From Parcubacteria group bacterium (GTDB lineage Bacteria; Patescibacteriota; Minisyncoccia; Phycocordibacterales; DATDWN01), in assembly GCA_040079825.1 (NCBI GenBank), contig JBEBJP010000019.1, positions 1-14,635 on the forward strand: 14,635 nucleotides of DNA, read 5' to 3'. Both the position numbers and the translations under genes were made by a program. Below are positions 1-13,719 of this stretch, piece by piece. Every line of letters begins with the position of its first letter. Within the stretch, counting starts at the first letter, position 1. The notes under the pieces are model-generated. The model was not told where the DNA came from, searched no databases, and worked only from the letters and a program-made list of their open reading frames with translations.

Positions 1-515
1 GACAGACTTATATCATTATCTAATTCATTAAGCTCACGCTCGGATAATTCATAAAGATTTTTGAGTTTTAATTTTGCTTTCTTTGCACGTTTCTTGGTTA
101 TGCGCCACGCATAAAGCACAAGAAGAACATTCATTGGTATTGCACTAATTAGAGGAAGACCATCAATAAAAAGACCAAGAAACCAAAAATAAAACTTTAT
201 TTTCCATTTCAAAAACCAACCTTTCCCAAGCATGAAAAAGAAAAGAAATGAAGTTAGAAAAAGACCTGTAAAAAAACTAACTCCAGGAATAAGACCAATC
301 ATTAAGAAAGTTAAAACTATATCTAAAAAATCCTTAAACGCCGCGAGAAGTAAAGGAATCATAAAAGCAGACTCGTCGTTCCCTTTTTCGATCTCAGTAT
401 TTAATTTTATCGCTAACTTTTTAGCTAGGTGTATTATTCTCCGTTCAACAGCAACATCTCTAACGATCAGTGATTTTAATGTGCTTTTTCCAGAATAATG
501 ATAGTTGTCAGCCAT
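1..515 (-). CDS. Membrane protein, truncated by the window edge (first 171 codons present)
   Basis: Hand translation of the minus strand from ATG (complement of 513-515) stays open to position 1: MADNYHYSGKSTLKSLIVRDVAVERRIIHLAKK..FMIPLLLAAFKDFLDIVLTFLMIGLIPGVSFFTGLFLTSFLFFFMLGKGWFLKWKIKFYFWFLGLFIDGLPLISAIPMNVLLVLYAWRITKKRAKK.. It has several long hydrophobic stretches. It is missing from the supplied track because it has no stop inside the window. The listed + ORF 232-498 is its Lys-rich antisense shadow. Confidence 0.5.
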   Translation of the reverse strand, partial: MADNYHYSGKSTLKSLIVRDVAVERRIIHLAKKLAIKLNTEIEKGNDESAFMIPLLLAAFKDFLDIVLTFLMIGLIPGVSFFTGLFLTSFLFFFMLGKGWFLKWKIKFYFWFLGLFIDGLPLISAIPMNVLLVLYAWRITKKRAKKAKLKLKNLYELSERELNELDNDISL

Positions 516-556
516 ACAAATAATTCAAAAGGAGTAAATATAATCTGTTAATTATG

Positions 557-612
557 TGCTAACTATAGTATGTAGAATCAAAGTTAGCAAGTATCTACAC
601 TTTTAGTGTAGA
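557..612 (+). promoter_or_regulatory. Two palindromic candidate operators in the divergent intergenic region upstream of the XRE gene
   Basis: TGCTAACT (557-564) and AGTTAGCA (582-589) form an 8-bp inverted repeat with a 17-bp spacer. TCTACAC (594-600) and GTGTAGA (606-612) form a 7-bp inverted repeat with a 5-bp spacer that touches the ATG at 612. Both were read directly from the sequence. The operator function is inferred. Confidence 0.35.
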
Positions 613-827
613 TGATAAATAAACAAATACTTACACAATTTGGGAAGCGAGTACGACAAGAACGAGATAAGAAAGGTTACTCTCAAGAAAGACTGGGAGA
701 ACTCGCAAAAGTACACCGAACATATATCGGCATGATTGAGCGTGCTGAGAAAAATATTACCCTGACAAATATGGAAAAGATCGCTCGTGCTTTAGGTAAA
801 AAAGTAAATGACCTTGTGGATTTTTAG
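612..827 (+). CDS. XRE-family helix-turn-helix transcriptional regulator (71 aa), resembling R-M controller (C) proteins
   Basis: The ORF track protein contains the typical HTH_3 pattern: GYSQERLGELAKVHRTYIGMIERAEKNITLTNMEKIARALG. The small single-domain size matches this family. Confidence 0.85.
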   Translation: MINKQILTQFGKRVRQERDKKGYSQERLGELAKVHRTYIGMIERAEKNITLTNMEKIARALGKKVNDLVDF

Positions 828-945
828 ATAAGGATTATTTTGGGATTAGTTAATAATTTATTTATATAATTGTCCTTGTTCAAACATAACTATTTTATTG
901 GTGAGTGTCTTCAAAGTATTTAAAATCAATATCATCTGCACAATT

Positions 946-1215
946 TTAGTTTGGAAATAATTTCGAAATATCAAACTCAAAAACAGCACTTGCTCTTGAT
1001 TTGATTCCCCTTAGTTCTTCGTCGGTCAAATCACTTCGACCAATTCTCTGAATAAGAGTTTCAATTGCATCTTTAACTTTTGCTAAGTGACTAATCGTTT
1101 CGGCTTTTTCTCCTTCAATCATTGTCATGGCTTTTGAGGTGTCTAGAAAACCATCAGCATTTTGTTTTGCACCCACAATTTTTTCAGAACCATTGTTATA
1201 CCCCTCCATTCCCAT
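946..1215 (-). CDS. Hypothetical protein (89 aa)
   Basis: ORF only, with no motif I recognise. It has its own promoter-like element upstream and follows the terminator of the toxin gene. Confidence 0.4.
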   Translation of the reverse strand: MGMEGYNNGSEKIVGAKQNADGFLDTSKAMTMIEGEKAETISHLAKVKDAIETLIQRIGRSDLTDEELRGIKSRASAVFEFDISKLFPN

Positions 1216-1244
1216 AAATTTTGTAGTTAAATGTTAATAAGATA

Positions 1245-1273
1245 ATTATAGTATGTATTTTTGCTATAAACAA
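1245..1273 (-). promoter_or_regulatory. Candidate sigma70-type promoter for the 89-aa ORF
   Basis: On the minus strand: TTGTTT (complement of 1268-1273), a 17-nt spacer, then TATAAT (complement of 1245-1250). It lies about 30 nt upstream of the ATG at 1215. Confidence 0.3.
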
Positions 1274-1311
1274 GGGCAGGTTGAACTAAATTTGTAATAT
1301 TGATTGTTCAT

Positions 1312-1339
1312 TTGACATTCATATTCAGTCCTGTATACT
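1312..1339 (+). promoter_or_regulatory. Near-consensus sigma70-type promoter on the + strand with no ORF downstream
   Basis: TTGACA (1312-1317), a 16-nt spacer, then TATACT (1334-1339). Transcription would start near 1346 and run into the hairpins at 1353-1362 and 1368-1393. Confidence 0.35.
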
Positions 1340-1367
1340 AATGGTACAAAGTGCCGAAAGGCTCCGA

Positions 1368-1393
1368 GAAACCCCGCAGAGATGCGGGGTTTC
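1368..1393. terminator. GC-rich hairpin at the 3' end of the MazF-like gene, a possible bidirectional terminator
   Basis: GAAACCCCGCA-GAGA-TGCGGGGTTTC is an 11-bp stem. It lies 3 nt from the toxin stop codon (1397-1399). It is followed by TTTC on the minus strand and GATTTAT on the plus strand, so both T-runs are weak. Confidence 0.5.
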
Positions 1394-1396
1394 GAT

Positions 1397-1801
1397 TTAT
1401 ACTAGAAATCCTCTCAATTTATCTCTTACTTTTACAAAGTCGTTATTGGAAATATCGTATATTTTTCTTTTCAATCTTTTTACACTAACCAGTTTTAATT
1501 GAGCTAAAATAACAGAAACCTTTTCTCCATTTGGATCAGTAAAATTAAAATAAAAATCAAATTTCTTTTGTTTGGTTGAAAGCGAAGCACACCAAAACAT
1601 GTGATTGTTAAATTTTTTAACGACTAGAACAGGACGAGAAAAATTTGTTCCACTTCCATTTTGTTCAAAACCGATATTCTTGCCAAGTGAAGACATCCAA
1701 ACTTCTCCCTCCTTTGGAAAGTAATCTGGCTCGGTAGTTTCAGATTGAATCTTTTTCTTTAGCTCATTCCAAGCGTCATATTCTTTTTCTTCATTATTCA
1801 T
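1397..1801 (-). CDS. PemK/MazF-family toxin-like endoribonuclease (134 aa)
   Basis: Family signature in correct order and spacing: GEVWMSSLGKNIGFEQNGSGTNFSRPVLVVKKF...SLSTK...VSVILAQLKLVSVKRLKRKIYDIS. Compare E. coli MazF: GDLIWVDFDPTKGSEQAGHRPAVVLS...ADQVKSIAWRAR. Confidence 0.75.
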   Translation of the reverse strand: MNNEEKEYDAWNELKKKIQSETTEPDYFPKEGEVWMSSLGKNIGFEQNGSGTNFSRPVLVVKKFNNHMFWCASLSTKQKKFDFYFNFTDPNGEKVSVILAQLKLVSVKRLKRKIYDISNNDFVKVRDKLRGFLV

Positions 1802-1821
1802 TTGCTTATCTTCTCAAATTT

Positions 1822-2357
1822 GTTTGCCGTAGGCAAACGGCTCAATTCTTCCCATGTGAGCAGTAAGGCTCACACTTGCGAGGGAGTCTTCTCGCCGTAG
1901 GCGTTCTCGTGTGCGCGCATGGGAGGGTTGGGGCAAGCACACATAATACTTTGAGTCTCGGACATGTTCCGTTTTGGGCGTGGTTAAATAAAAACAAAAG
2001 TGTACACTAACCACTAGCCCAAAGGAATGTGCGAGACACCATTTGAATTGGCACTAGAATTCCGTCAGTTTCTCCCTTAAGGAGAAACCCGCCCGAGACT
2101 CACCCCCGCCATACCGAATCCAAATGCAATCCGCGCCAAACAAACTTGCATGGGGTCGGGGGCGGGGCGAGGGCGGACACGGAACAGCGGGAACGGAGGC
2201 AGACTGTCGTACCCGACAGTCTGGTGGAGTGGACGCTGTGCCGTGACGGAATTCGTCGTGGAGCGTACAGATTAACTCAACACAACCACACGCTTCGCGC
2301 GTGCGACATCATTACTCACCGATTTTGGAAACAGGTTCGGATTTGGTAAAATAAACG
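1822..2357. ncRNA. Candidate large structured non-coding RNA, or other structured non-coding element. Strand and class are undetermined.
   Basis: G+C jumps sharply: 36 of 60 in 1861-1920 and 42 of 60 in 2161-2220, against 14 of 60 in 1441-1500. Stems are dense. Local hairpins are at 1822-1838, 1855-1874, 2068-2088 and 2200-2223 (a perfect 10-bp stem). Long-range pairs are 1952-1961 with 2093-2102 (10 bp) and 2104-2110 with 2161-2167. Only two short ORFs of odd composition are present. Confidence 0.4.
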
Positions 2358-2504
2358 CACCTTAAACGAACTAAAGGGTTCTGAATGCGAACCCAAGCGG
2401 AACGCCCGAAGGGCGTGCCAAGGATTTTCTGGCGGGGTTGCAAGGGAATTCTGGGATTTTGGCGCGCAAGCGCGCAAGGTTTTTTCGCCGAGGAGGAGGT
2501 TCGA
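2358..2504. repeat. Left copy of a perfect 147-bp inverted repeat (IR-L)
   Basis: A block-by-block reverse-complement comparison with 4077-4223 gives 147 of 147 identity. Identity breaks at 2357/4224 and at 2505/4076. Confidence 0.97.
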
Positions 2505-2553
2505 TATCAGAAACGATTTTGACTATGTACATGCTTCGCATACAAAAAGAATT

Positions 2554-2582
2554 TTGTTGCTAATTGTTTTTATTGGTATACT
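2554..2582 (+). promoter_or_regulatory. Candidate promoter of the recombinase gene
   Basis: TTGTTG (2554-2559), a 17-nt spacer, then TATACT (2577-2582). TG at 2574-2575 gives an extended -10 (TGgTATACT). It lies about 100 nt upstream of the ATG at 2688. Confidence 0.4.
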
Positions 2583-2687
2583 ACATTTGCTCTTAGTTCT
2601 ATTCGTTAATTCCAATAGCCACTTTGTGTTAGTTTTTTCTCACGATTAAGCTAAGAGCCACAGAGTGGTTATTCGAGTTTTAATTTT

Positions 2688-4406
2688 ATGTCACAAAAAT
2701 TCTTTTTGTATGCTCGCAAGAGCACCGATGTCGAGGATAAACAAGTTTTGAGTATTGAGGCACAGTTAACGGAATTGCGCGCGTTTGCTCGTGAACAGAA
2801 TTTAGAAATAGTTGAGGAGTTGGTGGAGAAACAGTCGGCCAAAATTCCTGGTCGTCCTATATTCAACAGTATGATGAAAAAACTTGAGCAAGGTGTTGCT
2901 CAAGGAATTTTGGCCTGGCATCCCGACAGACTGGCGCGCAATTCTGTAGACGGCGGACAAATAGTGTACTTTCTCGACATCGGAAAAATTCAAAATCTAA
3001 AGTTTATCTCGCACTGGTTTGAAAATACTCCGCAAGGAAAATTCTCATTATCAATGGCTTTCGTCCAAAGCAAATACTATGTCGATTCTCTTTCCGAAAA
3101 TACGAAACGCGGACTTCGCCAAAAAGTACGCATGGGTATATTCCCAAGCCAAGCTCCTTTGGGGTATTTGAACGACAGTAGAACAAAAACTATTGTGGTA
3201 AATCGAAAGCAAGCAAAAATTATCCGCTTGGCTTTTGAGAAATATGTTAAAGGTGGTGAGAGACTGGAAGATATCGCAAACTTTTTGGCGAAGTCCGGCA
3301 TTCTCACATGGAACGGAAAGAGAATCTCAAAAACAAGAACATCATTCATTTTGTCTAATACATTTTATGTTGGTTTCTTCAATTATTCTGGAGAATTGCA
3401 CGAAGGTAAACACGAGCCAATCATTTCAAAGAAACTTTTTGATGAAGCACAGGAAATGTTAAGAAAAAGAGGTCAGCCAGAGCGAAAAGCTAAAAATGAA
3501 CCTCAACCTTTTTGTGGATTAGTGTCCTGTGCTTCATGTGGAATGATGATAACTGGCGAACACAAATTCAAAAGGCAGAAGAATGGCAATGTTCACGAAT
3601 ATACTTACTATCGCTGTACTAAAAAACGTAAAGATTTTCAGTGTAAAGAATCTGCCGTTAGAGAAAAAGAAATGGATCGCCAGTTATCATCCCTAATTCA
3701 AAAAGTTTCTTTACCCAAAGACTGGGCGGAGGAGTTATTAACCATGGCGGAAAATGACCACAAGAACTCCGCCCCGTCTTTGGTTGCTTGTGTGAAAGAG
3801 AAACAAGAGATGATTTCTTCTTTGTCTAAAAAACTAGAGCGACTTCTCAATGGTTACCTCGACCAAGATATTGAAAAAGAAGTGTATCGTGTAGAAAAAG
3901 CAAAATTGTTATCCACGAAGAAGTCGCTCGAAGAAGAAATGACATCTCTTTCACACAAGCAAAATGATTGGCTCGAACCGATGCAAAAGTGGATACAAAA
4001 GGCTCAAACAATGGACAAAATCGCTTCTGATCCAGACCTTTTTGCTAAAAAGGTCTGTGCCAAAGAAATCTTTGGCTCGAACCTCCTCCTCGGCGAAAAA
4101 ACCTTGCGCGCTTGCGCGCCAAAATCCCAGAATTCCCTTGCAACCCCGCCAGAAAATCCTTGGCACGCCCTTCGGGCGTTCCGCTTGGGTTCGCATTCAG
4201 AACCCTTTAGTTCGTTTAAGGTGTCCGAGAGAGGACTTGAACCTCCACAGCTTGCGCCATACGAACCTCAATCGTACGTGTTTACCAGTTACACCACTCG
4301 GACATCAAACAATCAAATATACTTGAATTGTTGCTTTTTATCTATTTTCAAAGTCGTTTCTATTTTCTCGCGTTTTCTAGACAAACAAACAACATCTGAA
4401 CTATAG
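2688..4406 (+). CDS. Large serine recombinase/integrase (resolvase catalytic domain, recombinase domain, zinc ribbon, coiled coil)
   Basis: N-terminus FFLYARKSTDVEDKQVLSIEAQ carries the catalytic Ser motif, and HPDRLARN follows. The zinc ribbon is CGLVSCASCG...YYRCTKKRKDFQC, followed by a long coiled-coil region. The conserved family end (EIFGSNLLLGEKTL) lies near 4070-4110. The ORF then runs without a stop through IR-R, antisense tRNA-Leu and antisense HE gene to 4406. The last 60-100 residues are probably fortuitous read-through. Confidence 0.9.
   Translation: MSQKFFLYARKSTDVEDKQVLSIEAQLTELRAFAREQNLEIVEELVEKQSAKIPGRPIFNSMMKKLEQGVAQGILAWHPDRLARNSVDGGQIVYFLDIGKIQNLKFISHWFENTPQGKFSLSMAFVQSKYYVDSLSENTKRGLRQKVRMGIFPSQAPLGYLNDSRTKTIVVNRKQAKIIRLAFEKYVKGGERLEDIANFLAKSGILTWNGKRISKTRTSFILSNTFYVGFFNYSGELHEGKHEPIISKKLFDEAQEMLRKRGQPERKAKNEPQPFCGLVSCASCGMMITGEHKFKRQKNGNVHEYTYYRCTKKRKDFQCKESAVREKEMDRQLSSLIQKVSLPKDWAEELLTMAENDHKNSAPSLVACVKEKQEMISSLSKKLERLLNGYLDQDIEKEVYRVEKAKLLSTKKSLEEEMTSLSHKQNDWLEPMQKWIQKAQTMDKIASDPDLFAKKVCAKEIFGSNLLLGEKTLRACAPKSQNSLATPPENPWHALRAFRLGSHSEPFSSFKVSERGLEPPQLAPYEPQSYVFTSYTTRTSNNQIYLNCCFLSIFKVVSIFSRFLDKQTTSEL
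4077..4223. repeat. Right copy of the perfect 147-bp inverted repeat (IR-R)
   Basis: Exact reverse complement of 2358-2504. It lies inside the recombinase reading frame. Its outer 2 nt (4222-4223) are the discriminator and last acceptor base of tRNA-Leu. Confidence 0.97.
4096..4119 (-). terminator. Weak terminator-like hairpin downstream of tRNA-Leu, with a mirror copy on the + strand at 2462-2485
   Basis: Read in the repeat orientation: GCGCG-CAAG-CGCGC, then AAGG, then TTTTTT. The stem is short and there is a 4-nt gap before the T-run, so this is tentative. Confidence 0.3.
4222..4303 (-). tRNA. tRNA-Leu (anticodon GAG), type II with long variable arm
   Basis: Reverse complement folds as a cloverleaf: GTCCGAG TG GTGT AACTGGTAA ACAC G TACGA TTGAGGT TCGTA TGGCGCAAGCTGT GGAGG TTCAAGT CCTCT CTCGGAC A. 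All stems pair, the T-loop is TTCAAGT and the discriminator is A73. Confidence 0.9.
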
Positions 4407-4990
4407 TACATTTTCTTAATGATTTCCATTGCCTCTCTTTTTGCATATTTTAATTGATAACAACCATTTACTCTTTTTGTTGAAGTAATATACCCAACGA
4501 CTTCAATTCGTTTTTTTAATTCCTCTTGAATCCATTCAAGAAATTTTCTACTGCCAGAAGAAAAGCCTATATAGTACATAAAACTTGAACGCCACCGTGG
4601 ATCCCAATAGCTATAGCTCGACCCGTCACCATCAAAACAACCACGCAAAAAATCAAAGAAATATTTCGGTGGGATTTCAATTTTTCTCAACGTAAGAGAT
4701 TTTTTATTAGTCAATCCAATAGAAAGAAGGAAGTTGTAAAAAATACGATTTTTAAATTGTATTCTTAATGCTTTTCTTCCAAAACCAGAAGATTTTTCAC
4801 CTATTTTAAAATCAACACCAAGACATTTTGAATAATTTTTCAATTATTCCATTTCAATAGATGTCAAATCGATAAGTAACCCATCACAAGATAGATAACC
4901 ATCAGTAGTTATTAGGCCGATTGCATATGCTAAATTTGACCTCCAAGTAACGTCAATAATCTTTTTTGGTTTCGGTCCCCTTTTAACCAT
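4313..4990 (-). pseudogene. Two-motif LAGLIDADG homing endonuclease interrupted by one in-frame TAA (codon 49)
   Basis: The N-terminal piece (4847-4990) reads MVKRGPKPKKIIDVTWRSNLAYAIGLITTDGYLSCDGLLIDLTSIEME and carries motif 1. A TAA follows at 4844-4846. The same frame then continues as LKNYSKCLGV...FFDFLRGCFDGDGSSYSY (motif 2) to 4313. Confidence 0.7.
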
Positions 4991-5042
4991 GTCTAATATT
5001 ATAATATCTCAATGTAATAACGTCTACTAATTTATCCTAATC

Positions 5043-5068
5043 AAAAAACATCCTTTCGGATGTTTTTT
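5043..5068. terminator. Bidirectional intrinsic terminator after rplS
   Basis: AAAAAACATCC-TTTC-GGATGTTTTTT lies 2 nt from the rplS stop (5071-5073). Confidence 0.75.
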
Positions 5069-5070
5069 GA

Positions 5071-5493
5071 TTATTCTTCAGATTCTGTTTTTGCTTCCTC
5101 TGTTGTCTCTTCAACGTCGGCACTTGGAGTATTGTCTGGAAGAGCTCTGATATTTCTCATTTGTCGTCTGATCTCCTTAGCAGCTTTGTCTCTTATGTGA
5201 TATAGCTTTGCTCGTCTAACTTTTGATCTCTTTATAGTTTCTATAGAATCGATCATAGGAGAATATAGAGGGAAGATTTTCTCAACTCCTACACCTGACG
5301 CAACACGTCTCACTGTGAAAGTTGCCCCAGCTTCTTTGCCGTGCTTTACAGCTATTACCAAACCTTCAAAAGCCTGAAGTCTTGTCTTTCCTTTTTCCTG
5401 AATTTTTTGCCAAACACGAATAGAATCGCCTGATCTAATATCAAGTGCTTTTCTGTCAGCTACTTTAACTGGTGACTGAATAGTTGTTTCCAT
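5071..5493 (-). CDS. rplS: 50S ribosomal protein L19 (bL19) with an acidic C-terminal tail
   Basis: IRSGDSIRVWQKIQEKGKTRLQAFEGLVIAVKHGKEAGATFTVRRVASGVGVEKIFPLYSPMIDSIETIKRSKVRRAKLYHIRD matches the conserved bL19 core. Confidence 0.95.
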   Translation of the reverse strand: METTIQSPVKVADRKALDIRSGDSIRVWQKIQEKGKTRLQAFEGLVIAVKHGKEAGATFTVRRVASGVGVEKIFPLYSPMIDSIETIKRSKVRRAKLYHIRDKAAKEIRRQMRNIRALPDNTPSADVEETTEEAKTESEE

Positions 5494-5516
5494 AACCCAA
5501 GTAATCTATCACAGGA

Positions 5517-6254
5517 TTAGTAGCTTTGCAATAGATCCAGGGCGTTCGCAAAATCCGCAGGGTACGGGGCTACTATGGTGTGTGTGTCCCCTTTTTGGTC
5601 AGCAAACGACAGGCAATACGAATGCAGAGCTAGTCTGACAAAACCCAGGTTGTTTTCCCTGTTTGGAGCATAAACCGAGTCGGCCACCAAAGGATAACTA
5701 ATGGCTTTGAAATGCACACGAATCTGGTGGGTCCTACCTGTTTTAGGCTTAACCTCAACAAAAGAATAGTCTTTGTTACTTTTTAAAACTTTGTAATGAG
5801 TCTCCGCTTCTCTTAACTCACCCCTGGCACCCCTTTGAGCCGACCACATTCGGAAATCTTTTGAACTCCTGCCGATAGGACGGTCTATAACGTCTTCTGT
5901 TTTTTTTAATTGACCATAAACAAACGCATGATAAGTTTTTTCTATATTGTGATTCTTAAATTTATCCTTTAAAAATTCAAAAGTTTCTTGATTTTTAGCA
6001 ATCATCATTACACCAGAAGTTTCCCTATCCAAACGATGAACAATACCCGAACGTAGAACGGTTTCTCCGTTTGCTGTTCTTCCGGGCTCGCCAACATCCT
6101 TGATTTGTGGGTAGTTTTTTAATATCCAGTCCACCAGATTTTTCTCTTTGATCTTTCCTGCTTCTTTTGCATGCCCGTCATCATGAACAACCAATCCAGA
6201 CGGTTTGTTTATGACCAAAATATTAGCATCTTCGTACAAAATAGTAGGTTCCAT
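5517..6254 (-). CDS. RluA-family 23S rRNA/tRNA pseudouridine synthase (no S4 domain)
   Basis: ILVINKPSGLVVH, the catalytic motif HRLDRETSGVMMIAK, and TGRTHQIRVH are present. I prefer the ATG at 6254, 1 nt after the uppS stop, over the TTG at 6266 used in the track. Confidence 0.85.
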   Translation of the reverse strand: MEPTILYEDANILVINKPSGLVVHDDGHAKEAGKIKEKNLVDWILKNYPQIKDVGEPGRTANGETVLRSGIVHRLDRETSGVMMIAKNQETFEFLKDKFKNHNIEKTYHAFVYGQLKKTEDVIDRPIGRSSKDFRMWSAQRGARGELREAETHYKVLKSNKDYSFVEVKPKTGRTHQIRVHFKAISYPLVADSVYAPNRENNLGFVRLALHSYCLSFADQKGDTHTIVAPYPADFANALDLLQSY

Positions 6255-6255
6255 A

Positions 6256-6951
6256 TTACTTACCAATTCTTCTTTCCCTGTTACTGTACTCTTCTATAAT
6301 CTTTAAAAATTCTTCTTTATTAAAATCTGGCCACAGTGTTTTTGTAAAAAACAGCTCACTGTAAACTCCTTGCCATGGTAAAAACCCAGACAACCTCATT
6401 TCACCTGAAGTTCTAATAATAATATCTGGATCAGGCATCGGATATGTCTGCAAATTTTTTGCAAAGAAGTCCTCGTTAATATCCTCTATATTTGGATTTT
6501 GCTGGATTATTTTTTTAACTGCCGACAGTATCTCGGCTCTTCCGCCATAGTTTAAAGCGAAGTAAACATTTATACCTGAATTATTTTTTGTTTTTTCAAC
6601 AGATTCAGACAGTGTCCTTTGTAGACCTTCGGAGAAACATGAGAGATCCCCAACATAATGCAAAACACCGTTTTCTTTATTAAAATAATCTAGTTCTTTT
6701 TTTATAAAACCACTGATCAAATCCAGTAGATAAAAAACTTCTTCATCCGAACGTTTCCAGTTCTCTGTAGAAAACGTATAGAAAATAATATGTTTAATAC
6801 CTAGATCATTGGCATCTTTAATGATTGTCTTTAGAGTCTGCCCCCCAGCCTGATGCCCCTTCAATATATGCATCTCGTTTCCCCTGGCCCATCTCCTGTT
6901 ACCGTCCATTATTATACCTACACAATTGGGTATTTTCATTTCTGCACTCAT
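6256..6951 (-). CDS. uppS: Isoprenyl transferase / undecaprenyl-diphosphate synthase
   Basis: GIIMDGNRRWA, FSTENWKR and IRTSGEMRLSGFLPWQ are hallmark cis-prenyltransferase motifs. Confidence 0.92.
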   Translation of the reverse strand: MSAEMKIPNCVGIIMDGNRRWARGNEMHILKGHQAGGQTLKTIIKDANDLGIKHIIFYTFSTENWKRSDEEVFYLLDLISGFIKKELDYFNKENGVLHYVGDLSCFSEGLQRTLSESVEKTKNNSGINVYFALNYGGRAEILSAVKKIIQQNPNIEDINEDFFAKNLQTYPMPDPDIIIRTSGEMRLSGFLPWQGVYSELFFTKTLWPDFNKEEFLKIIEEYSNRERRIGK

Positions 6952-7016
6952 TCGAATAATTGTACATTATTTTGTTGCTTGATAAAAGAGGATTAATGAT
7001 GTAATCTAAAAACATT

Positions 7017-7090
7017 GCGGGATTAGCTCAGTTGGTTAGAGCAATTCATTTACACTGAATAGGCCGGGGGTTCGAGTCCTCCATCCCGCA
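7017..7090 (+). tRNA. tRNA-Val (anticodon TAC)
   Basis: Acceptor GCGGGAT pairs with ATCCCGC. D arm is GCTC-AGTTGGTTA-GAGC. Anticodon arm is ATTCA-TTTACAC-TGAAT. T arm is GGGGG-TTCGAGT-CCTCC. No CCA is encoded. Confidence 0.92.
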
Positions 7091-7155
7091 CAAGTCATAG
7101 ATATTTTGCTAGTAAATCACTCGCAAAATTCTACGACCCTGCCTCGCTCAAATAT

Positions 7156-7227
7156 GCTCTCGTAGTTCAATGGATAGAACAGAGCTCTTCTAAGGCTTTG
7201 ATGTAGGTTCGATTCCTGCCGAGAGCA
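7156..7227 (+). tRNA. tRNA-Arg (anticodon TCT)
   Basis: Acceptor GCTCTCG pairs with CGAGAGC. D arm is GTTC-AATGGATA-GAAC. The anticodon loop is CTTCTAA. T arm is GTAGG-TTCGATT-CCTGC. Confidence 0.9.
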
Positions 7228-7230
7228 CAA

Positions 7231-7274
7231 CAAGCATGAAAAAAACTGGATCATTCCAGTTTTTTTCATGCTTG
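7231..7274. terminator. Long bidirectional intrinsic terminator shared by the tRNA pair (+) and the pil operon (-)
   Basis: CAAGCATGAAAAAAACTGGA-TCAT-TCCAGTTTTTTTCATGCTTG is a perfect 20-bp stem containing A and T runs. Confidence 0.8.
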
Positions 7275-7304
7275 CATCAATTGTTTTTTAACTCAAATAT
7301 ATTT

Positions 7305-7640
7305 CTAAAAAGAAGGATCTGGAGGTATGTTTTTGTCATTTTTTATCGCTTCTAAAGACTCTGCCCTAGAGTTTATACCATCTACGACTTTTTTTATAAG
7401 CTTCTCATCTAGTTTTAACTCCTTACTCATTTCATCATAGTCAGAAACAAAGAGTCGGTTGTTATCTACCTCCACATAAATATAGAACGCAAAAGACAAC
7501 ATAGCTAAAATCAAAATAAAACTTAGTACAAACATAATACTCCAATCTCGTTTTGGTCTATAGCCCTGTGGTTTGTAGGATACTTTTTTTACCCCCGTGT
7601 CTCCAAACCAACTTTTTAACTTTTGTAAAATTTTATTCAT
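7305..7640 (-). CDS. Small single-pass membrane protein, last gene of the pil-like operon
   Basis: The ORF has one hydrophobic segment (WSIMFVLSFILILAMLSFAFYIYV). It is tightly coupled to the upstream ORF, whose stop is at 7642. No motif was recognised. Confidence 0.5.
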   Translation of the reverse strand: MNKILQKLKSWFGDTGVKKVSYKPQGYRPKRDWSIMFVLSFILILAMLSFAFYIYVEVDNNRLFVSDYDEMSKELKLDEKLIKKVVDGINSRAESLEAIKNDKNIPPDPSF

Positions 7641-7641
7641 A

Positions 7642-8196
7642 TTATTTGTACTTCAACAAATATACCTCAAACTGACTTTGCCATTCGGTCTTCTTTTTAT
7701 TTGTACCTAAAGAAACTTCCTGACCCAAGATTGAAAATTGGGAAACTTTTATTTTAAGTGGAAGTGACTCTATTTGATTCAAGAACCTATAAGTATCAGC
7801 CCAACTACCTCTGGTTTTTGCACGAATTTTGAAAATTACGACACCGCTCGCCAAAGTTCTAGGCTGATCTTCTAGCAAAAGCGACTCTATTTCCAACTCC
7901 AAATCGTTTGAGTTAGCCAACAATTCAAAATCCTCAATAAACTGAATATCACCGCCGTAAGGAATGATGGAGTTGTTTATGTTGGCAATATCAGAACTGA
8001 TACTTTCTATTTTATTTTTTGTTGAAATAGCATACTTTTCCGCTTCTTCCTGAAGGGACAGTTCATGCGTTAGTTTAGAAATATGACGGCTTCTATTTTT
8101 TATATCCAAATACAAAGCATAATAAAATCCAATAATTATAAAAACTACTAGTGTAAGAGTTGCCAATATTCTTTTTAATGGTTTACCTCTAGACAT
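7642..8196 (-). CDS. PilO-like type IV pilus assembly protein
   Basis: An N-terminal TM helix is followed by a coiled-coil segment. The gene sits directly after pilN-like and pilM-like genes. The call rests on architecture and position only. Confidence 0.45.
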   Translation of the reverse strand: MSRGKPLKRILATLTLVVFIIIGFYYALYLDIKNRSRHISKLTHELSLQEEAEKYAISTKNKIESISSDIANINNSIIPYGGDIQFIEDFELLANSNDLELEIESLLLEDQPRTLASGVVIFKIRAKTRGSWADTYRFLNQIESLPLKIKVSQFSILGQEVSLGTNKKKTEWQSQFEVYLLKYK

Positions 8197-8200
8197 GTTT

Positions 8201-8740
8201 TTATGAACCTATGGTCATTGTTATTGAAAATTTTATATCTCTATCTTTTGTAAAATTTGAAATTGGCGAATCTATTTTTTTAAAAGAATGAGTATCTTCT
8301 AGTCCCTTTATAAAATCTGACAGAGACTCTCTGGTAGCAGAAACACCTTGTATGATCATTATAGATGATGAAGCTGTATTTGATTTGTAGGCAAATTGAT
8401 TTATTTTTATATAACGTGACTTATTTGTTAGAACGGTGTTTATAACTGGAACCACTTCTTTATACTCTAGAGTTGCATTGATCACACCAACTTTCTGGTT
8501 AACTGATTTTATTATGGATTTAGTTGAACTTGCACTCAAGACTGAAATTGAATTATTCATTTTGTCTGATTGCAGGATCAAATCTTTCTCTCTATAAAAT
8601 GAAGTTAACCATGATGGTAAAATAAACACTATAAAAACCACCTGAATAAACAAAATAAAATATAGTATTGTTATAAACCTTCGAAGTCTGTACTCCGATT
8701 TTATTTTATTTTTTAATTCATCAGGAAGAAGATTGGACAT
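8201..8740 (-). CDS. pilN: PilN-like type IV pilus assembly protein
   Basis: The N-terminal NLLPDE motif is followed by a TM helix (FITILYFILFIQVVFIVFILP). The gene lies immediately downstream of pilM. Confidence 0.6.
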   Translation of the reverse strand: MSNLLPDELKNKIKSEYRLRRFITILYFILFIQVVFIVFILPSWLTSFYREKDLILQSDKMNNSISVLSASSTKSIIKSVNQKVGVINATLEYKEVVPVINTVLTNKSRYIKINQFAYKSNTASSSIMIIQGVSATRESLSDFIKGLEDTHSFKKIDSPISNFTKDRDIKFSITMTIGS

Positions 8741-8744
8741 GATT

Positions 8745-9713
8745 TTATATTAAAATATTTACAGGTAGTGCTAGGCCAATAGCCGCGGAGTATTTCAAGG
8801 AATCGGTATGCGAAATAGCTGGAATGTCAGTTTTTATATCAAAGGCGTTTGTCCAAACATTTCCCAAAATCACTTTGGTCTGATGATTGGATGCTAAATA
8901 TGGAATAATTGATTCTGAAAAATTCTCTCCTGAGATAATAATCTGACTTATCTTTCTCTCCTCTTTATCTGCATTGTCTTTCAATAAATGCCAGTAAGCA
9001 AAAAGTCTTTTTATCTCTTGCGAAAGAAAATCTGGATTGTTAGAAACATCACCCTTTATGTTTACTGTAGAAGTAAAACGAACAACTCGGTCACTTGCGA
9101 CATACAGACCAACTTTTTCTGGACCAAAATGCACGATCAAAACAGTGTCGTCGCTATCTGGTGGCAGAAGACATCTTGCTATAGCTTGAGATTCTACTTC
9201 CATAGATAATGGATAAAGACCTGCACTGTTTGTAATACCCACATAACTTTCAACAACAGTTATCGGTAATGTAGAAACAGCTACGTCTATATGACCAGCT
9301 TCATCGTGCTCTATGAGTTTGTAGTCAAATATCAACTCACTCGGAGATACTGGTACATTTTCTTCTATCTTGGACTCTATTGCCTCTTTTATTTCACTCG
9401 GTTTAACCAAAGGTATCTTTGTTGTAAAAAGATAAGCTTTCTCTTCTGGTAAAGAAACTTTTACATAAGTTAAATCAAGATCCTTCTTCAATTCCTGAAG
9501 TATCGTTGTTAGAACTTCTTTGTCGTTGACCTCGCCTGAAGTAATAACTCCTTTTGGTACAACTTTCTCACCGTATTTTTTTATATGTAACCTACCCCAC
9601 TTGTTTTCAAACTGAATACAATGTATCGAGTTGTCAGAAATAGATAATCCAGCAAACGGAATGTCTAGAAACTTTGGTGGAGGAAAAGCATCAAATATTT
9701 TATTAAAGTTCAT
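8745..9713 (-). CDS. pilM: PilM-like type IV pilus assembly ATPase-fold protein
   Basis: The length and sequence pattern are actin-like (AGLSISDNSIHCIQF...VKVSLPEEKAYLFTTKIP...ELIFDYKLI), and PilN/O-like genes follow. The ATG at 9713 (MNFNKIF..) is preferred over the TTG at 9740 used in the track. Confidence 0.75.
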   Translation of the reverse strand: MNFNKIFDAFPPPKFLDIPFAGLSISDNSIHCIQFENKWGRLHIKKYGEKVVPKGVITSGEVNDKEVLTTILQELKKDLDLTYVKVSLPEEKAYLFTTKIPLVKPSEIKEAIESKIEENVPVSPSELIFDYKLIEHDEAGHIDVAVSTLPITVVESYVGITNSAGLYPLSMEVESQAIARCLLPPDSDDTVLIVHFGPEKVGLYVASDRVVRFTSTVNIKGDVSNNPDFLSQEIKRLFAYWHLLKDNADKEERKISQIIISGENFSESIIPYLASNHQTKVILGNVWTNAFDIKTDIPAISHTDSLKYSAAIGLALPVNILI

Positions 9714-9763
9714 CCACTCAATTATATAACAAAGAAACAATAAATACAGGGATAAATAGTTTT

Positions 9764-10105
9764 TTATTTAACAGAACTACCTGGAACAACATCACTTCCT
9801 GTTTCCAAAAGAGAAAAATATTTATTTTCACCGACTACACCAGAAACTGCCATTATCATACCCTGACTTTCTAGTCCCATAATCATTCGAGGTTCTAGGT
9901 TTGCGACAAATGCACATTTTTTACCAACCAAATCTTTTGGATCAGAGAAAAATTGTTTTATTCCAGAGACAATTTGTCTAGGAGACTCTTCCCCCATGTC
10001 CACAGTCAACTTGTATAGCTTATCTGAACCAACTATCTCTTCAGCATTCACTATGTGGCCTATTTTTATTTCTACTTTTTTAAAATCATCTATTGATATA
10101 GTCAT
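9764..10105 (-). CDS. tRNA-binding domain protein (CsaA/Trbp111/MetRS C-terminal-like)
   Basis: FKKVEIKIGHIVNAEEIVGSDKLYKLTVDMGEE.PRQIVSGIKQFF..DLVGKKCAFVANLEPRMIMGLESQGMIMA is the classical OB-fold tRNA-binding domain pattern. Confidence 0.8.
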   Translation of the reverse strand: MTISIDDFKKVEIKIGHIVNAEEIVGSDKLYKLTVDMGEESPRQIVSGIKQFFSDPKDLVGKKCAFVANLEPRMIMGLESQGMIMAVSGVVGENKYFSLLETGSDVVPGSSVK

Positions 10106-10106
10106 A

Positions 10107-10535
10107 TTATTTGTTTTTGTTAATGTCTAAAAAGCTTCTTAATATTATCGCAGCAGCACTAGCGTCATGCATTTTATTTATCACCTCACGACTTCTTAGT
10201 CTAGTCCCTGTCGGCATGCGTCTTGTCTGTGTACGCTCTGCTTCTTCTGAAGTCATAAACTCTGGATGCAAGTGGACCTGCAAACCAGACCTGGCTTTTA
10301 GACTTTCTACAAAAGGTTTTATGTCTCGCATTATTTTATTTTCATTTTGCGAAAAATCTAGAGACTCACCCACCACGATCTCCCCAACCTCCTTATCTTT
10401 ACATATATCTAAAATATCACTTACCAAGTTTTCAGAATTTATAATAACTTTTAACGGCATAGCCAAAAGTCCCGATTCATCGGAAAGTGCTACCCCAACC
10501 CTTTTAGAGCCATAATCAATACCCATATACCTCAT
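10107..10535 (-). CDS. ruvX: Holliday junction resolvase-like protein RuvX/YqgF
   Basis: GIDYGSKRVGVALSD at the N-terminus, VVGESLDFSQNE and SEEAE match the YqgF family. Confidence 0.88.
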   Translation of the reverse strand: MRYMGIDYGSKRVGVALSDESGLLAMPLKVIINSENLVSDILDICKDKEVGEIVVGESLDFSQNENKIMRDIKPFVESLKARSGLQVHLHPEFMTSEEAERTQTRRMPTGTRLRSREVINKMHDASAAAIILRSFLDINKNK

Positions 10536-10587
10536 AAAGATAGTCTAACTTAAACTAAAAACAATTGCATTATGGCCTGATTTTGCT

Positions 10588-10824
10588 ATGATGTCCCACA
10601 TGAACCAAGTGGCAACACTAAACGATTCCACTCTATGGCTTATAGTCATATTGACTATACTTTCATTGCCATGGAAAGGTATTGCACTATGGAAAGCAGC
10701 ACAACTTTCACATAAAAAATGGTTCGTTATTTTACTTATTACGAATACTGTAGCTATTTTGGATATAATATATATCTTCTATGTTGCAAGAAAATACAAA
10801 GTAGAAATATTGGAAGAAAAATAA
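10588..10824 (+). CDS. Small two-TM membrane protein, DUF5652-like
   Basis: PWKGIALWKAAQLSHKKWFVILLITNTVAILDIIYIFY resembles the DUF5652 pattern as I recall it. The family name is from memory and has not been searched. Confidence 0.55.
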   Translation: MMSHMNQVATLNDSTLWLIVILTILSLPWKGIALWKAAQLSHKKWFVILLITNTVAILDIIYIFYVARKYKVEILEEK

Positions 10825-10829
10825 AATAC

Positions 10830-10914
10830 GGAGGTGTCGCATAGTGGTCGAGTGCACCCGTCTTGAAAACGGGAGAGCCGCAAGGTTCCGTGAGTTCGAA
10901 TCTCACCGCCTCCG
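10830..10914 (+). tRNA. tRNA-Ser (anticodon TGA), type II
   Basis: Acceptor GGAGGTG pairs with CGCCTCC. Anticodon arm is CCCGT-CTTGAAA-ACGGG. There is a long variable arm. T arm is GTGAG-TTCGAAT-CTCAC. The discriminator is G. Confidence 0.92.
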
Positions 10915-11196
10915 CAACGTAATATCATCGGTCTGCCTTGCCATTAAATTGAATGGAGAACGCAAGGAAAACTCTAGCTTTTTTCCGTTTAATACACAGT
11001 TAGAAAGTAGGAAACCCAAAAGTTGTCTCTTTTCACTGACTTCAGAACTTATAAAGATTTCTTTTGCTCGTTTAGCTAGATTTAACACAGTGCCTGCACT
11101 GATATAAAACTGTTCATCAGCATCAGAGTGGTCTTTCATCTGTTCAAGTATTTCTGCTTGTCTGGATTTGTAATCTCTTAAATAATTGTCATACAT
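10903..11196 (-). pseudogene. C-terminal remnant of a second large serine recombinase, running into the 3' end of tRNA-Ser
   Basis: The ORF track protein ...ISSEVSEKRQLLGFLLSNCVLNGKKLEFSLRSPFNLMA... parallels the C-terminal end of the intact recombinase (AKEIFGSNLLLGEKTL.....P....SLA). No catalytic or zinc-ribbon part lies upstream. The stop codon lies inside the tRNA (10903-10905). Confidence 0.55.
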
Positions 11197-11273
11197 TTCT
11201 TCTGTAATTCACAAGCAGAAAAACAAAATACGAACGCAGAGCAACGAATATAATTAAAAGCTATAATAAAACT

Positions 11274-11699
11274 ATGTCTATAGAAAAAACTGGGGAATTT
11301 ACAAGAGAAAATGAGTTGCCTGAAAATGTTTCTGGTCAGGAAAAAAGTCCTAATGACCAGCTATTTGAAATCTATTCAGGAATACAGATACAAAATACTC
11401 ATCCAAGTTTTAGCGAGAAGCCCGAAGATACTTTTTATTGGAAAGGAGACAGATTGGAAGCTGTAAAACAAGGGTTAGCGACAATAGAAGATTTATCTGT
11501 TCAAAATCAAATTTCAGAAGTTGTAAGTCCTTTTAATAGTGAAGAAAGAGTAAATGTGCAACCCTTTATTGATAAAGTTAAAAGGTCTATTGAGTACTCG
11601 GAACAAATAAATGAACAATTAAAAACTCAACCTGAAGTTTCTGATGAGGAAAAAGCTAGACGGAAAGCGGAGATAAGAAAAAGACTCTTGGGAGAATAG
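11274..11699 (+). CDS. Hypothetical acidic protein (141 aa)
   Basis: ORF only. TATAAT lies 6 nt upstream of the ATG, suggesting a leaderless or very short leader mRNA. Confidence 0.45.
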   Translation: MSIEKTGEFTRENELPENVSGQEKSPNDQLFEIYSGIQIQNTHPSFSEKPEDTFYWKGDRLEAVKQGLATIEDLSVQNQISEVVSPFNSEERVNVQPFIDKVKRSIEYSEQINEQLKTQPEVSDEEKARRKAEIRKRLLGE

Positions 11700-11709
11700 A
11701 TAACCTATA

Positions 11710-12474
11710 TTACTTCTTCAGCAAACGAAAAATAGTGAACTCGGGTAGCTTTGTAAGTTTTTTATATTTCTCTGGAAACTCACTTTTCATACCTTCAGTT
11801 GGCATTGGGTCAATGATTTGCTCAATCAAAAAGCCAGAAGAATGTATCTCGGCTGAGATTTCTGCATACGATTTTCTCCAACAGGTAATTGTGTTTTTAC
11901 CAAAACCATCTGGAAGTTTCTTTCTTGCAACATAATCGCCTGTAATCTTATATTCTTTGGTTTCTTTATTTTTTACAAGTTCAAGCTTATTAACCCAATC
12001 CGTATCAGTATTTGCTCCATCCATTGCATATTTCACTGGATGACCGCAAGAAAATAGAAAATATGAATTTGGTTTCAATACCCGATACACTTCTTTGAAA
12101 ACCGTTGTCCAATCTTCAATGTAGTGTATAGCAAGACTGGAATAAGCAAAATCAAAAGTAGAGTCTGAAAAATCAAGGTGTTCCATATCCATTACTTTGA
12201 ACTCACACTCAGGATGAACTTCTTTTGCAAGTTTTATCTGTTCTGAAGAAATATCAATTCCTACTGACTTATCTGCACCTAAGCTTTTTAGGTAGGCACT
12301 GTCTGTTCCTGCCCCACAACCCAGACTTAATACAGTATTACCTTTTATATCAGGAATAAGCCCATACATTGCAGGTTTCTCATAAAACTGATGGTAAGGA
12401 GAGCTACTACTATCGGCAGTATAGTCTCTGGCGTTCGCATTGTACCAATCTATACTGTTTTTATCTGTAGACAT
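11710..12474 (-). CDS. Class I SAM-dependent methyltransferase
   Basis: Motif I is VLSLGCGAGTDSAYL. It is followed by GIDISSEQIKLAK and FDFAYSSLAIHYI, the typical Methyltransf_11/25 arrangement. Confidence 0.85.
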   Translation of the reverse strand: MSTDKNSIDWYNANARDYTADSSSSPYHQFYEKPAMYGLIPDIKGNTVLSLGCGAGTDSAYLKSLGADKSVGIDISSEQIKLAKEVHPECEFKVMDMEHLDFSDSTFDFAYSSLAIHYIEDWTTVFKEVYRVLKPNSYFLFSCGHPVKYAMDGANTDTDWVNKLELVKNKETKEYKITGDYVARKKLPDGFGKNTITCWRKSYAEISAEIHSSGFLIEQIIDPMPTEGMKSEFPEKYKKLTKLPEFTIFRLLKK

Positions 12475-12649
12475 ATAGCAGAGTATACTAAAAAATTGCT
12501 TAAAGGTTAAGGATTTAGAGAGGTAAATAATTTAATTTGCAGATATGTTCACAAATTGAGATACTGGAAACAAGCTGATGTACTTCAAATCCTGTTGTAT
12601 ACTCTTCCAATTCACAGTTCTGAACGCATCTAACCACTCCCGCATAAAG

Positions 12650-12674
12650 AAAACCCGAAAGGGTTTTTCTTTTT
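12650..12674 (+). terminator. Orphan terminator-like hairpin in the intergenic region upstream of the VOC gene
   Basis: AAAACCC-GAAA-GGGTTTT is followed by TCTTTTT on the + strand. There is no + strand gene upstream. Flanking bases can extend the stem (CCACTCCC at 12634-12641 with GGGTGG at 12675-12680). Confidence 0.4.
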
Positions 12675-12773
12675 GGGTGGCAAGCAAAGTGTGGCAGTCT
12701 GACCAAACCTCTCTTCTTCCATTCAATAGCGTAACAACGTACAATTAATCGATAACTTTAAAACATAAAAAAT

Positions 12774-13199
12774 ATGGCAACAATAAACCCCTATATTAAC
12801 TTCAATGGAAATGCCGAAGAAGCATTTACGTTTTATAAATCTGTTTTCGGTGGAGAGTTTACAGATATAACTCGCTTCAAAGACCTAGCGAGTGATGAGT
12901 TTCCCGTGCCAGAAAATGAAGCAGATAAAATAATGCGGATCGCTTTACCTATTGGTAACAATGTACTTTTAGCAAACGACATCCCTGAAAGCATGGGACG
13001 AGTAAACGAAAACGAAAATAGATCCAAGATTGCAATTACCACACAAAACAAAGAAGAAGCAGACAATGTTTTCAATAAACTTTCAGTTGGTGGAACAGTT
13101 GAAATGCCGATGTCAGAAAGTCCTTGGGGCACTTACTTTGCAATGTTTAGAGACAAGTACGGTATTGAGTGGACTATTGAATTTGATTCAAAAAAATAG
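12774..13199 (+). CDS. VOC/glyoxalase-fold protein (PhnB-like)
   Basis: INPYINFNGNAEEAFTFYKSVFGGE, the central IMRIALPIGNNVLLAND and the C-terminal PWGTYFAMFRDKYGIEWTI are typical of the PhnB-like VOC family. Confidence 0.8.
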   Translation: MATINPYINFNGNAEEAFTFYKSVFGGEFTDITRFKDLASDEFPVPENEADKIMRIALPIGNNVLLANDIPESMGRVNENENRSKIAITTQNKEEADNVFNKLSVGGTVEMPMSESPWGTYFAMFRDKYGIEWTIEFDSKK

Positions 13200-13266
13200 T
13201 CGCAGGTTATCCTTCTTTCAAACTTGTGAATTCGAATTTTTTCATTTCTTCTTGTATAATTAAGTC

Positions 13267-13719
13267 ATGAATTTAAAACAATACTCTGTTCTTCTATCTA
13301 GAGTTTCATTATTTATAATTTATTTTTGGTTTGGTATTTTAAAAGTTATAGGATTATCCCCTGCTAGTGGAATAGTGCAAGAACTTTTTAGTAAGACACT
13401 TGCTCACATGCCAATAGTTTCAAGCATGCCATCCGCAAACTTTTTGGTTTTGTTTGGAGTGTTTGAGGTTATTATCGGAATACTATTTATTATTCCTGAA
13501 AAAGAAAGATGGGCTTCATATGCTTTTATTGCGCACATCATAACAACAGGACTTCCCCTATTTTTCCTAGGAAGTTCCGTTTGGTCAGGAATTTTCGTAC
13601 CCACCTTAGAAGGACAGTACATCATCAAAAACCTTGCACTTATATCATGTGTTCTAAATATATGGACAAACACCTCTATGACTCAAAAACAGATTATCAG
13701 CACTAACCCTGTAATATAA
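13267..13719 (+). CDS. Four-TM membrane protein, possibly DUF417/DoxX-like
   Basis: It has four hydrophobic segments. The TLEGQYIIKNLALIS motif resembles DUF417-type proteins as I recall them. The family assignment is tentative. Confidence 0.55.
   Translation: MNLKQYSVLLSRVSLFIIYFWFGILKVIGLSPASGIVQELFSKTLAHMPIVSSMPSANFLVLFGVFEVIIGILFIIPEKERWASYAFIAHIITTGLPLFFLGSSVWSGIFVPTLEGQYIIKNLALISCVLNIWTNTSMTQKQIISTNPVI

Follow-up and report, generated by a model that had tools for sequence, protein, structure and literature searches.

Large serine recombinases are thought to need only a protein and two short DNA sites, and they are widely used in genome engineering. In members of this family such as A118/LI integrase, SPbeta SprA, phiC31, Bxb1 and TnpX, a Resolvase domain, a Recombinase domain and a zinc ribbon are followed by a coiled-coil, and the elements that they move have precise junctions with a short common core. 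GOLLD and ROOL are large, ornate RNAs that are GC-rich relative to their surroundings and are found near tRNA genes and in integrated elements (PMC5737381). In phage lambda, whose integrase is of the tyrosine type, attP stands between the integrase gene and the structured element sib, one RNase III hairpin that acts on the sense transcript of int, and the two are joined only in the attP configuration. In IS110/IS1111 elements, a noncoding bridge (seek) RNA lies beside a DEDD recombinase and spans the element junction, and its loops are complementary to both target and donor. In the Hin segment and in the FLP/FRT system of the yeast 2-micron plasmid, the recombinase, a small invertase or FLP, resides inside inverted repeats that hold the recombination site, and both orientations occur.

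Patescibacteria have tiny genomes and few described mobile elements. The window analysed here, a stretch of 14,635 nt from a Parcubacteria group bacterium (contig JBEBJP010000019.1), contains a GC-rich block between a toxin gene and a recombinase gene (Table 1). On the evidence of its junctions, this block is part of a serine-recombinase mobile element lodged at tRNA 3' ends in many Patescibacteria. By protein family, the element belongs to the large serine recombinases, with which it shares the domain set; its junctions, which end at the same nucleotide in dozens of loci, would resemble theirs in having a short common core. Its RNA, if transcribed, forms a new family. However, the element departs from described serine recombinase elements in several ways. 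The targets are the 3' ends of many different tRNAs, and the crossover falls within the integrase ORF itself, with 14 codons left to the stop. An inverted repeat of ~147 nt keeps an intact, inverted copy of attP in the integrated element, which is a non-canonical layout, and a structured noncoding arm of 300-600 nt adjoins attP. Like lambda sib, the block is placed beyond attP, so that integration separates the structured element from the integrase gene; among the contigs, configurations in which block and recombinase are joined and unjoined both occur. The block domain greatly exceeds sib in size and probably gives a transcript of the opposite sense. The block resembles GOLLD and ROOL in its size, its ornateness, its relative GC content and its setting of a tRNA and an integrated element. 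Unlike them, it is physically tied to the attachment site of a serine recombinase, and the membership in these classes that was suggested in the initial annotation is not borne out, as neither covariance model matches on either strand, even at E<10. The candidate noncoding RNA resembles the bridge RNAs in lying beside a recombinase and spanning an element junction, but comparison of the block with the adjacent tRNA found no locus-specific match that would correspond to the target complementarity of a bridge RNA. Finally, as with Hin and FLP, the recombinase is found in both orientations between its repeats: 43 instances have the orientation of the window, with the gene facing away from the block, and in about 12 it faces the block. 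The enzyme, however, is an integrase-type large serine recombinase, and the repeats are also the att arms of the element.

Table 1. Positions of features in and around the GC-rich block of the window
Feature	Position	Strand	Basis and remarks
PemK/MazF-like toxin gene	1397..1801	-	Pfam PF02452, E 4.8e-9; divergent from block
Two window-specific hairpins (1822-1838, 1855-1874)	1822..1874	+	Missing from 17 other full-length 5' ends; outside covariance-model match
Conserved 5' domain	1881..1970	+	Alignment A4, model R1; AGGGAG start 1881-1886; variable hairpin 1893-1896/1900-1903
5'-domain stem UGUGC/GCACA	1910-1914/1937-1941	+	Inner pairs 1917:1934 and 1918:1933; G-rich loop GGGAGGGUUGGGG
Long variable hairpin GTCTCG...CGAGAC	1955..2037	+	MFE fold; homologues L003, L018, L159, L140, L175
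Multi-helix core domain	2057..2254	+	Alignment A1; closed by GAAUUCCGUC/GACGGAAUUC (2057-2066/2245-2254)
Core helices	2068-2075/2081-2088, 2089-2112/2150-2176, 2198-2209/2214-2225	+	Alignment A1
Sequence-conserved linker GGAGCGUAC and hairpin 2287-2303	2255..2315	+	Alignment A3; little covariation; hairpin recovered by terminator scan
P arm of crossover site, with tRNA T-loop-like GGTTC motif	2316..2357	.	Antisense is last 14 recombinase codons and stop
IR-L ("I")	2358..2504	+	100% inverted repeat with 4077-4223; antisense copy of recombinase codons 464-512 (49 codons)
IR-L hairpins H1, H2 and terminator H3	H1 2376-2394, H2 2399-2419, H3 2462-2475 and U-run 2480-2485	+	Fold, terminator scan
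Intergenic region, likely recombinase promoter	2505..2687	+	Conserved beside IR-L in more than 20 loci
Large serine recombinase	2688..4223	+	Core 2688-4076, then IR-R 4077-4223; Pfam domains
tRNA-Leu(GAG)	4220..4303	-	ARAGORN, Rfam; 3' end ..GGACACC is target-side half of IR-R junction

The recombinase matches the Pfam families Resolvase (E 3.7e-21), Recombinase (8.3e-18) and Zn_ribbon_recom (1.6e-7), and its closest relatives of solved structure (PDB) are SPbeta SprA and A118 integrase, with E about 1e-11. The arms of a perfect inverted repeat of 147 nt enclose the gene in the window, and the right arm extends at its outer end over the final 4 nt of tRNA-Leu(GAG), which is on the opposite strand. 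The ORF runs past IR-R into the antisense of this tRNA, up to 4406. An exact look-up of the 572-aa ORF returned no record, a blastn search against phage and plasmid collections returned nothing, and no element or RNA of such a description was found in the literature searched. A scan of GTDB species genomes with the recombinase yielded 125 relatives; 80 loci, nearly all from Patescibacteria MAGs and with 45-87% identity, were kept. The same inverted repeat flanks the recombinase in most of these 80 loci, with arms that are usually 95-100% identical. In about 50 loci a tRNA 3' end, that of a tRNA for Leu, Gly, Val, Arg, Lys, Thr, Glu, Ser, Tyr or Met, directly adjoins the right arm. Many Patescibacteria lineages have the element, at tRNA genes of diverse identity. 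Metagenomes scanned with the junction motif of the P arm added at least 120 further stretches, and the same scan of IMG/VR found none. Cargo varies among the loci, with no replication gene consistently linked; the PemK/MazF-like toxin gene is probably cargo of the element. An independent Logan contig (L001) is identical to window positions 6-2348 (100%) and ends 10 nt short of the repeat.

At the left junction, the end of the GC-rich block carries the motif GATTTTGAAAATAGGTTC..TTGGTA.AATA.../CACCA (the slash marks the junction), which is conserved in more than 30 loci. Three loci (L008, L029 and L050) instead have a real tRNA at the left arm, where the block otherwise stands, and one of them (L029) has tRNAs at both arms; the element may therefore drive inversions between tRNA loci. 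Where the flanks are long (12 loci), the last 115-405 nt of the block recur once more, inverted, 1.7-5 kb further out. These copies end at the identical crossover nucleotide, where they are joined to unrelated DNA, and the intervening genes vary. At locus L222, the block is joined to the native tRNA-Val/tRNA-Arg spacer, which in other genomes follows an unoccupied tRNA-Val(UAC); this spacer is 98.6% identical to the unoccupied site in L021. From these arrangements, the junctions are read as attL-like (tRNA joined to I), attP-like (block joined to I) and attR-like (block joined to the former downstream DNA of a tRNA), and their comparison shows the crossover point to be the outer end of I. In IR-L this outer end is CACC, the core in common with the tRNA end; the left boundary of the window's own element (attR) lies outside the window. 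The GGTTC of the P arm stands about 4 nt further from the core than it does in a tRNA, an offset that may resemble the way in which the zinc-ribbon motif is known to be moved outward in attP compared with attB. The GGTTC at the block end is read as a mimic of the tRNA at the level of DNA. A tRNA- or tmRNA-like 3' end of the block was also considered and was rejected, as ARAGORN and Rfam are negative and inspection by eye finds no T-arm/acceptor fold.

The recombinase gene continues across the crossover. Its frame runs without a stop through the right arm of every one of the 45 loci examined and is open in 107 of 109 repeat copies, versus 38% for the other two frames. In this frame only, a tail of SLLYQ(A/V)RTYFQN(K/R), followed by a stop at codon 13-15, extends across the junction in 101 of 119 unique copies, and contigs in which the gene is joined to the block end (L221, L153, L219, L018 and L201) have ORFs of about 527 aa that include the tail. 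In the attP configuration, the ORF thus reads through I and 14 codons of the block end to a conserved stop, which places the crossover inside the gene. In the window this stop is TCA at 2316-2318 (TGA antisense), and the minus strand of the conserved linker region (2255-2315) would lie just downstream of it in the attP configuration. Since the ORF crosses its own crossover, integration rewrites the C-terminus of the enzyme. The amino acids encoded by the repeat shift along with covariation of its hairpins (DALRAS, ACLRHA, AALCAA), indicating that pairing of the nucleic acid is also selected there. A candidate recombinase promoter, TTGCTA ... TATACT, can be read directly in the intergenic region beside IR-L. 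The terminator-like hairpin with T6 that the initial annotation placed at 2462-2485 on the plus strand is recovered by a terminator scan; among 119 copies, the T-run is present in 116, while the H3 hairpin varies in sequence and often has a UUCG loop. Attachment-site junctions of the attR type were also considered as always carrying the native terminator of the tRNA, an idea that was set aside because an obvious terminator is seen at only 14 of 83 attR-like junctions.

The GC content of the interval 1822-2504 is 53.9%, compared with 32% for the DNA to its left and 35% for positions 4304-14635. The initial counts of G+C (36/60 at 1861-1920, 42/60 at 2161-2220 and, in the neighbouring gene, 14/60 at 1441-1500) are exact on recount. 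The ORFs present are all short, and the two of about 66 aa already listed there are now placed at 1814-2014 on the minus strand and 2146-2349 on the plus strand. A Pfam search of 11 ORFs gave no match, and the homologues differ by frame-breaking indels of 1-2 nt; both results support the view that the block is noncoding. The interval was also compared with 4227 Rfam models, including GOLLD, ROOL, HEARO, OLE, raiA, tmRNA, RNase P and the group I/II introns. No family matches it on either strand, at the gathering threshold or at E<=10, in keeping with the earlier failure to place it by eye among tmRNA, RNase P or group I/II introns. No match falls within the homologous blocks of 12 related loci, and across the window and these loci Rfam finds only tRNAs and, elsewhere, a single group I intron. 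As an RNA, the block would thus represent a new family, neither GOLLD nor ROOL.

The interval folds well as a plus-strand RNA, with an MFE of -288.3 kcal/mol versus -233.6 +/- 5.9 for dinucleotide shuffles (z = -9.3); for the minus strand, the corresponding z is -6.9. All four local stems and all four long-range complementarities described in the initial annotation are present at their coordinates, and homologues discriminate among them. The pairing of GTGTGC with GCACAC (1909-1914/1937-1942) is backed by compensatory changes and by an inner pair that covaries 8:8, CCCCGCC/GGCGGGG (2104-2110/2161-2167) falls within conserved helix 4, and the hairpins at 2068-2088 and 2200-2223 covary. However, the pairing of CCCATG with CATGGG (1851-1856/1918-1923) is not conserved, nor are the hairpins at 1822-1838 and 1855-1874, both of which precede position 1881, where the conserved 5' part begins. 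The segment 1952-1961 does have its complement at 2093-2102, but this partner is doubtful; both the MFE fold and the homologues make a local pairing, 1955-1960/2032-2037, the likelier one. The extent of the interval is modified as well: positions 1822-1880 are outside the conserved unit, and positions 2316-2504 are dual-use, since their antisense codes for the recombinase C-terminus.

Covariation among the collected homologues supports the pairing in three alignments. A1 contains the window-type core (about 2040-2315) from 7 alignable, fairly close sequences. Of the 74 pairs in its consensus fold, 11 are changed on both sides. In this fold 95.7% of cells are paired, compared with 34-41% when the partners are slid, and the covariation score is 0.169 versus 0.03-0.04; 0 of 500 shuffles reach the observed value. 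Purine-rich joining strands of the core domain (GGCGAGGGCGGA) are conserved. In A4, a consensus folding of the 5' domain, one inner pair occurs as C-G and as A-U in eight sequences each, and the stem shows a C-G to U-A change. In A2, compensatory changes affect 5 of the 8 pairs of hairpin H2 within the repeat (8-15 of 34 sequences). Model R1, a covariance model built for the 5' domain, matches window positions 1881-1970 with 62.2 bits (E 9e-13) and has 27 single-copy instances among about 170 loci; 18 full-length copies, the window included, have this domain in common. Copies of the 5' domain have an AT-rich upstream region with a -10-like hexamer (TAnnnT, 6-9 nt upstream of the 5' start in homologues), a fixed AGGGAGC start and an optional hairpin with covarying arms. 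In the window itself the promoter region departs from this pattern, as two additional hairpins take the place of the AT-rich -10 context.

Downstream of the 5' domain, the hairpin at 1955-2037 measures about 80 nt both here and in L003; in other members it has about 50 nt and a CCCCAGA loop. The middle modules of other subfamilies differ yet are equally hairpin-rich, for example with two hairpins that have conserved CCCCAGA loops; the arms of such hairpins pair over a mean of 11.8 bp with their own partner versus 7.6 bp with arms from other copies. Because the middle domain varies between subfamilies, no single common fold is established. In A3 (38 sequences), the last ~90 nt before the junction are conserved in sequence with almost no covariation, which is explained by the role of this DNA as an att half-site and by its antisense coding. 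The alignments together show 1881-2315 (~435 nt) to be a modular domain in which predicted base pairing is conserved with compensatory changes. Thus, of the original proposal of a large structured noncoding RNA, the noncoding character (Pfam, indels) and the structure (compensatory pairing in the alignments) stand. The idea of a free-standing gene between toxin and recombinase does not, as the block belongs to the mobile element of that recombinase, of which it forms the arm next to the attachment site. Two further candidates were discarded: a pseudoknot of the 5' G-rich loop with the CCCCAGACCCC hairpin loops, for which no covariation is seen by eye, and the pattern GGCGAGGGCGGA..ACGGA as a search motif, which is non-specific (50 chance matches in GC-rich viral contigs).

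Several features bear on which strand would function as RNA. In Watson-Crick-seeded hairpins, G.U and A.C stem mismatches number 71 and 58 in the block and are about equal in I, and so reveal no strand bias. In the plus sense, unpaired positions are 37% A versus 23.5% U, with A exceeding U in 69 of 86 blocks, and the plus strand folds slightly better across blocks (Wilcoxon p = 0.009). The A-rich unpaired positions, the fixed 5' start with its promoter-like context and the downstream terminator favour the plus strand. Our best reading, to which we give about half of our confidence, is that the interval is an arm of the integrative element whose plus strand specifies a structured RNA across the attachment site, coupling recombinase expression to the integration state. 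Transcription would begin at a promoter just upstream of the AGGGAG start, near 1881, and the transcript would cross the crossover site and stop at the terminator inside I. At attR junctions, which lack I, its end would instead fall in the former downstream DNA of the tRNA. Such a transcript would run antisense to the mRNA of the recombinase over its final ~63 codons, and both its 3' partner sequence and the 3' end of the recombinase itself would change with the integration state. Expression or stability of the recombinase could in this way be tied to integration, either through antisense control or through retroregulation as in lambda sib; the large folded body would then confer stability or serve as a platform for protein binding. 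The position of the block suggests that coupling is probably its function. Control of the recombinase by configuration would be the most economical function, with a logic like that of lambda sib and a form like that of cis-antisense RNAs.

The hairpins might instead act in the DNA, as DNA structures or palindromic protein-binding sites within an extended accessory attP arm (a synapsis or architectural site), or as the origin or single-strand hairpin region of an excised circle. We consider this somewhat unlikely. It would fit the location of the block directly beside the crossover site and the inverted duplication of the two together, and it would fit the good folding of both strands and the lack of a G.U over A.C bias among stem mismatches. 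However, for characterised large serine recombinases, sites of about 50 bp are sufficient (e.g. PMC12286644). Moreover, the stems covary freely while loops and purine-rich joining strands are conserved, a pattern typical of RNA and not of protein-binding sites; the unpaired positions are A-rich on one strand; and the cargo varies, with no replication gene linked consistently. The same absence of G.U bias, together with the minus-strand z of -6.9, would also be compatible with a functional minus strand. In that case there would be no separate RNA gene, and the block, which in the attP configuration comes immediately after the ORF stop at 2316-2318 (antisense), would be a structured 3' UTR that stabilises or destabilises the recombinase mRNA, as in retroregulation of the lambda sib type. 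This is unlikely, since the unpaired positions would then be U-rich, the AGGGAG end and the -10-like element beyond it suit a 5' start better than a 3' end, and direct reading of the sequence finds no terminator after the block in the minus sense. In addition, the recombinase does not face the block in the window and 43 other instances.

The true tRNAs that occupy the block position at L008, L029 and L050, the T-loop-like GGTTC in the block end and six block copies with no recombinase within 6 kb or more could indicate a housekeeping noncoding RNA gene of the host, whose 3' end is simply another integrase target, as tRNAs are. We hold this to be highly improbable. The antisense of the block end codes for the conserved recombinase tail with its position-fixed stop, partial inverted copies end exactly at the crossover point, and at L222 the block is joined to native tRNA-Val downstream DNA. 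Furthermore, the type of block tracks the relatedness of the recombinase (L003, whose recombinase is 87% identical to that of the window, has the window's block type), and ARAGORN and Rfam detect no tRNA-like or tmRNA-like gene. A decayed protein gene of higher GC content, or an inverted repeat created during assembly, is effectively refuted. The two ORFs of ~66 aa could be remnants of such a gene, but the 11 ORFs have no Pfam match and the homologues differ by 1-2-nt indels. Many related contigs do break inside the repeat, as an artefact might; however, dozens of independent assemblies, produced by different assemblers, contain the repeat together with its inner junction to the recombinase upstream region, and the link between the block and PemK is confirmed by the Logan contig.

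Besides coupling by configuration, the block RNA could be a partner of the recombinase, serving as an RNA directionality factor, as a scaffold that chooses tRNA ends or as a sensor of the integration state. This is very unlikely; if true, it would constitute the first RNA-dependent large serine recombinase system, carried by an undescribed family of inverted-repeat elements that rearranges Patescibacteria tRNA loci. Comparison of the block plus I with the 3' half of the adjacent tRNA reveals no locus-specific identity or complementarity. The longest substring that a tRNA 3' half has in common with the block plus I of its own locus measures 7.6 nt in the sense and 7.2 nt in the antisense direction, versus 7.3 and 6.9 nt for the blocks of other loci. 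A guide-RNA role of the bridge/seek type was rejected on this comparison.

If the block is an RNA that controls or assists the recombinase, it adds an RNA layer to the large serine recombinases. If it is only a structural 3' region, it still defines a new RNA family and a new type of element for genome annotation. The element leaves a live-looking copy of attP in the chromosome. The inverted-repeat element also explains the frequent contig breaks in assemblies of these organisms: 12 contigs begin inside the left arm and 4 consist of repeat-gene-repeat alone, as is expected of a true repeat.

At three related loci from other genomes, a tRNA stands in the place of the block beside the recombinase cassette. 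In L029, tRNA 3' ends flank the cassette on both sides (5698-5772 and 7529-7613); L008 and L050 have a tRNA directly next to the left arm. Identity between the two repeat arms is just 81-88% in L008 and L029. The position of these tRNAs and the arm identities in L008 and L029 suggest recombination between a second tRNA and the internal attP copy, the junction of block and repeat that is kept within the integrated element, with inversion of a segment of the chromosome. Another locus, L064, looks like a pile-up of these serine recombinase elements (table).

Features of the window and of related loci
Feature	Location	Strand	Details
LAGLIDADG homing endonuclease gene	window 4313-4990	-	two abutting ORFs, 4844-4990 and 4313-4843
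Promoter and terminator pair	window 1312-1400	+	near-consensus promoter; terminator 1368-1393
Perfect hairpins	window 7231-7274 and 14300-14349		20-23 bp, between A and T runs
Three recombinase copies or fragments, several nested inverted repeats	L064 1766-8973		one Woesebacteria contig
Group I intron	L053 8959-9191		Nomurabacteria genome; Rfam, 78 bits

The split LAGLIDADG gene lies immediately upstream of the target tRNA-Leu of the element; no intron was detected near this gene and tRNA in the window. The L053 intron is near a tRNA cluster that adjoins another copy of the element.

Beside the PemK-like toxin gene, a promoter (TTGACA, 16 nt, TATACT) matches the consensus at 11/12 positions, and a strong terminator lies ~30 nt downstream of it. 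This pair would yield a predicted RNA of ~50 nt, transcribed convergently towards the toxin gene's 3' end. There is no antitoxin ORF upstream of the toxin gene, and the candidate RNA could be an RNA antitoxin or an antisense RNA. Its sole Rfam match, rnk_pseudo, is weak (E 0.13) and is driven by the terminator.

The 5' region of the GC-rich block contains four G-tracts (1882-1933), GGG at the 5' start and then GGGAGGGUUGGGG, from which an RNA G-quadruplex is conceivable. All four are kept in most full-length block copies; the L201 copy lacks the first.

The perfect hairpins, which directly follow tRNA-Arg(UCU) and tRNA-Arg(GCG), are native tRNA terminators, of the type displaced by the element at occupied tRNAs. 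Finally, several loci carrying the Patescibacteria-type element come from MAGs whose labels read Gammaproteobacteria, archaeon or Woesearchaeota, probably through binning errors.
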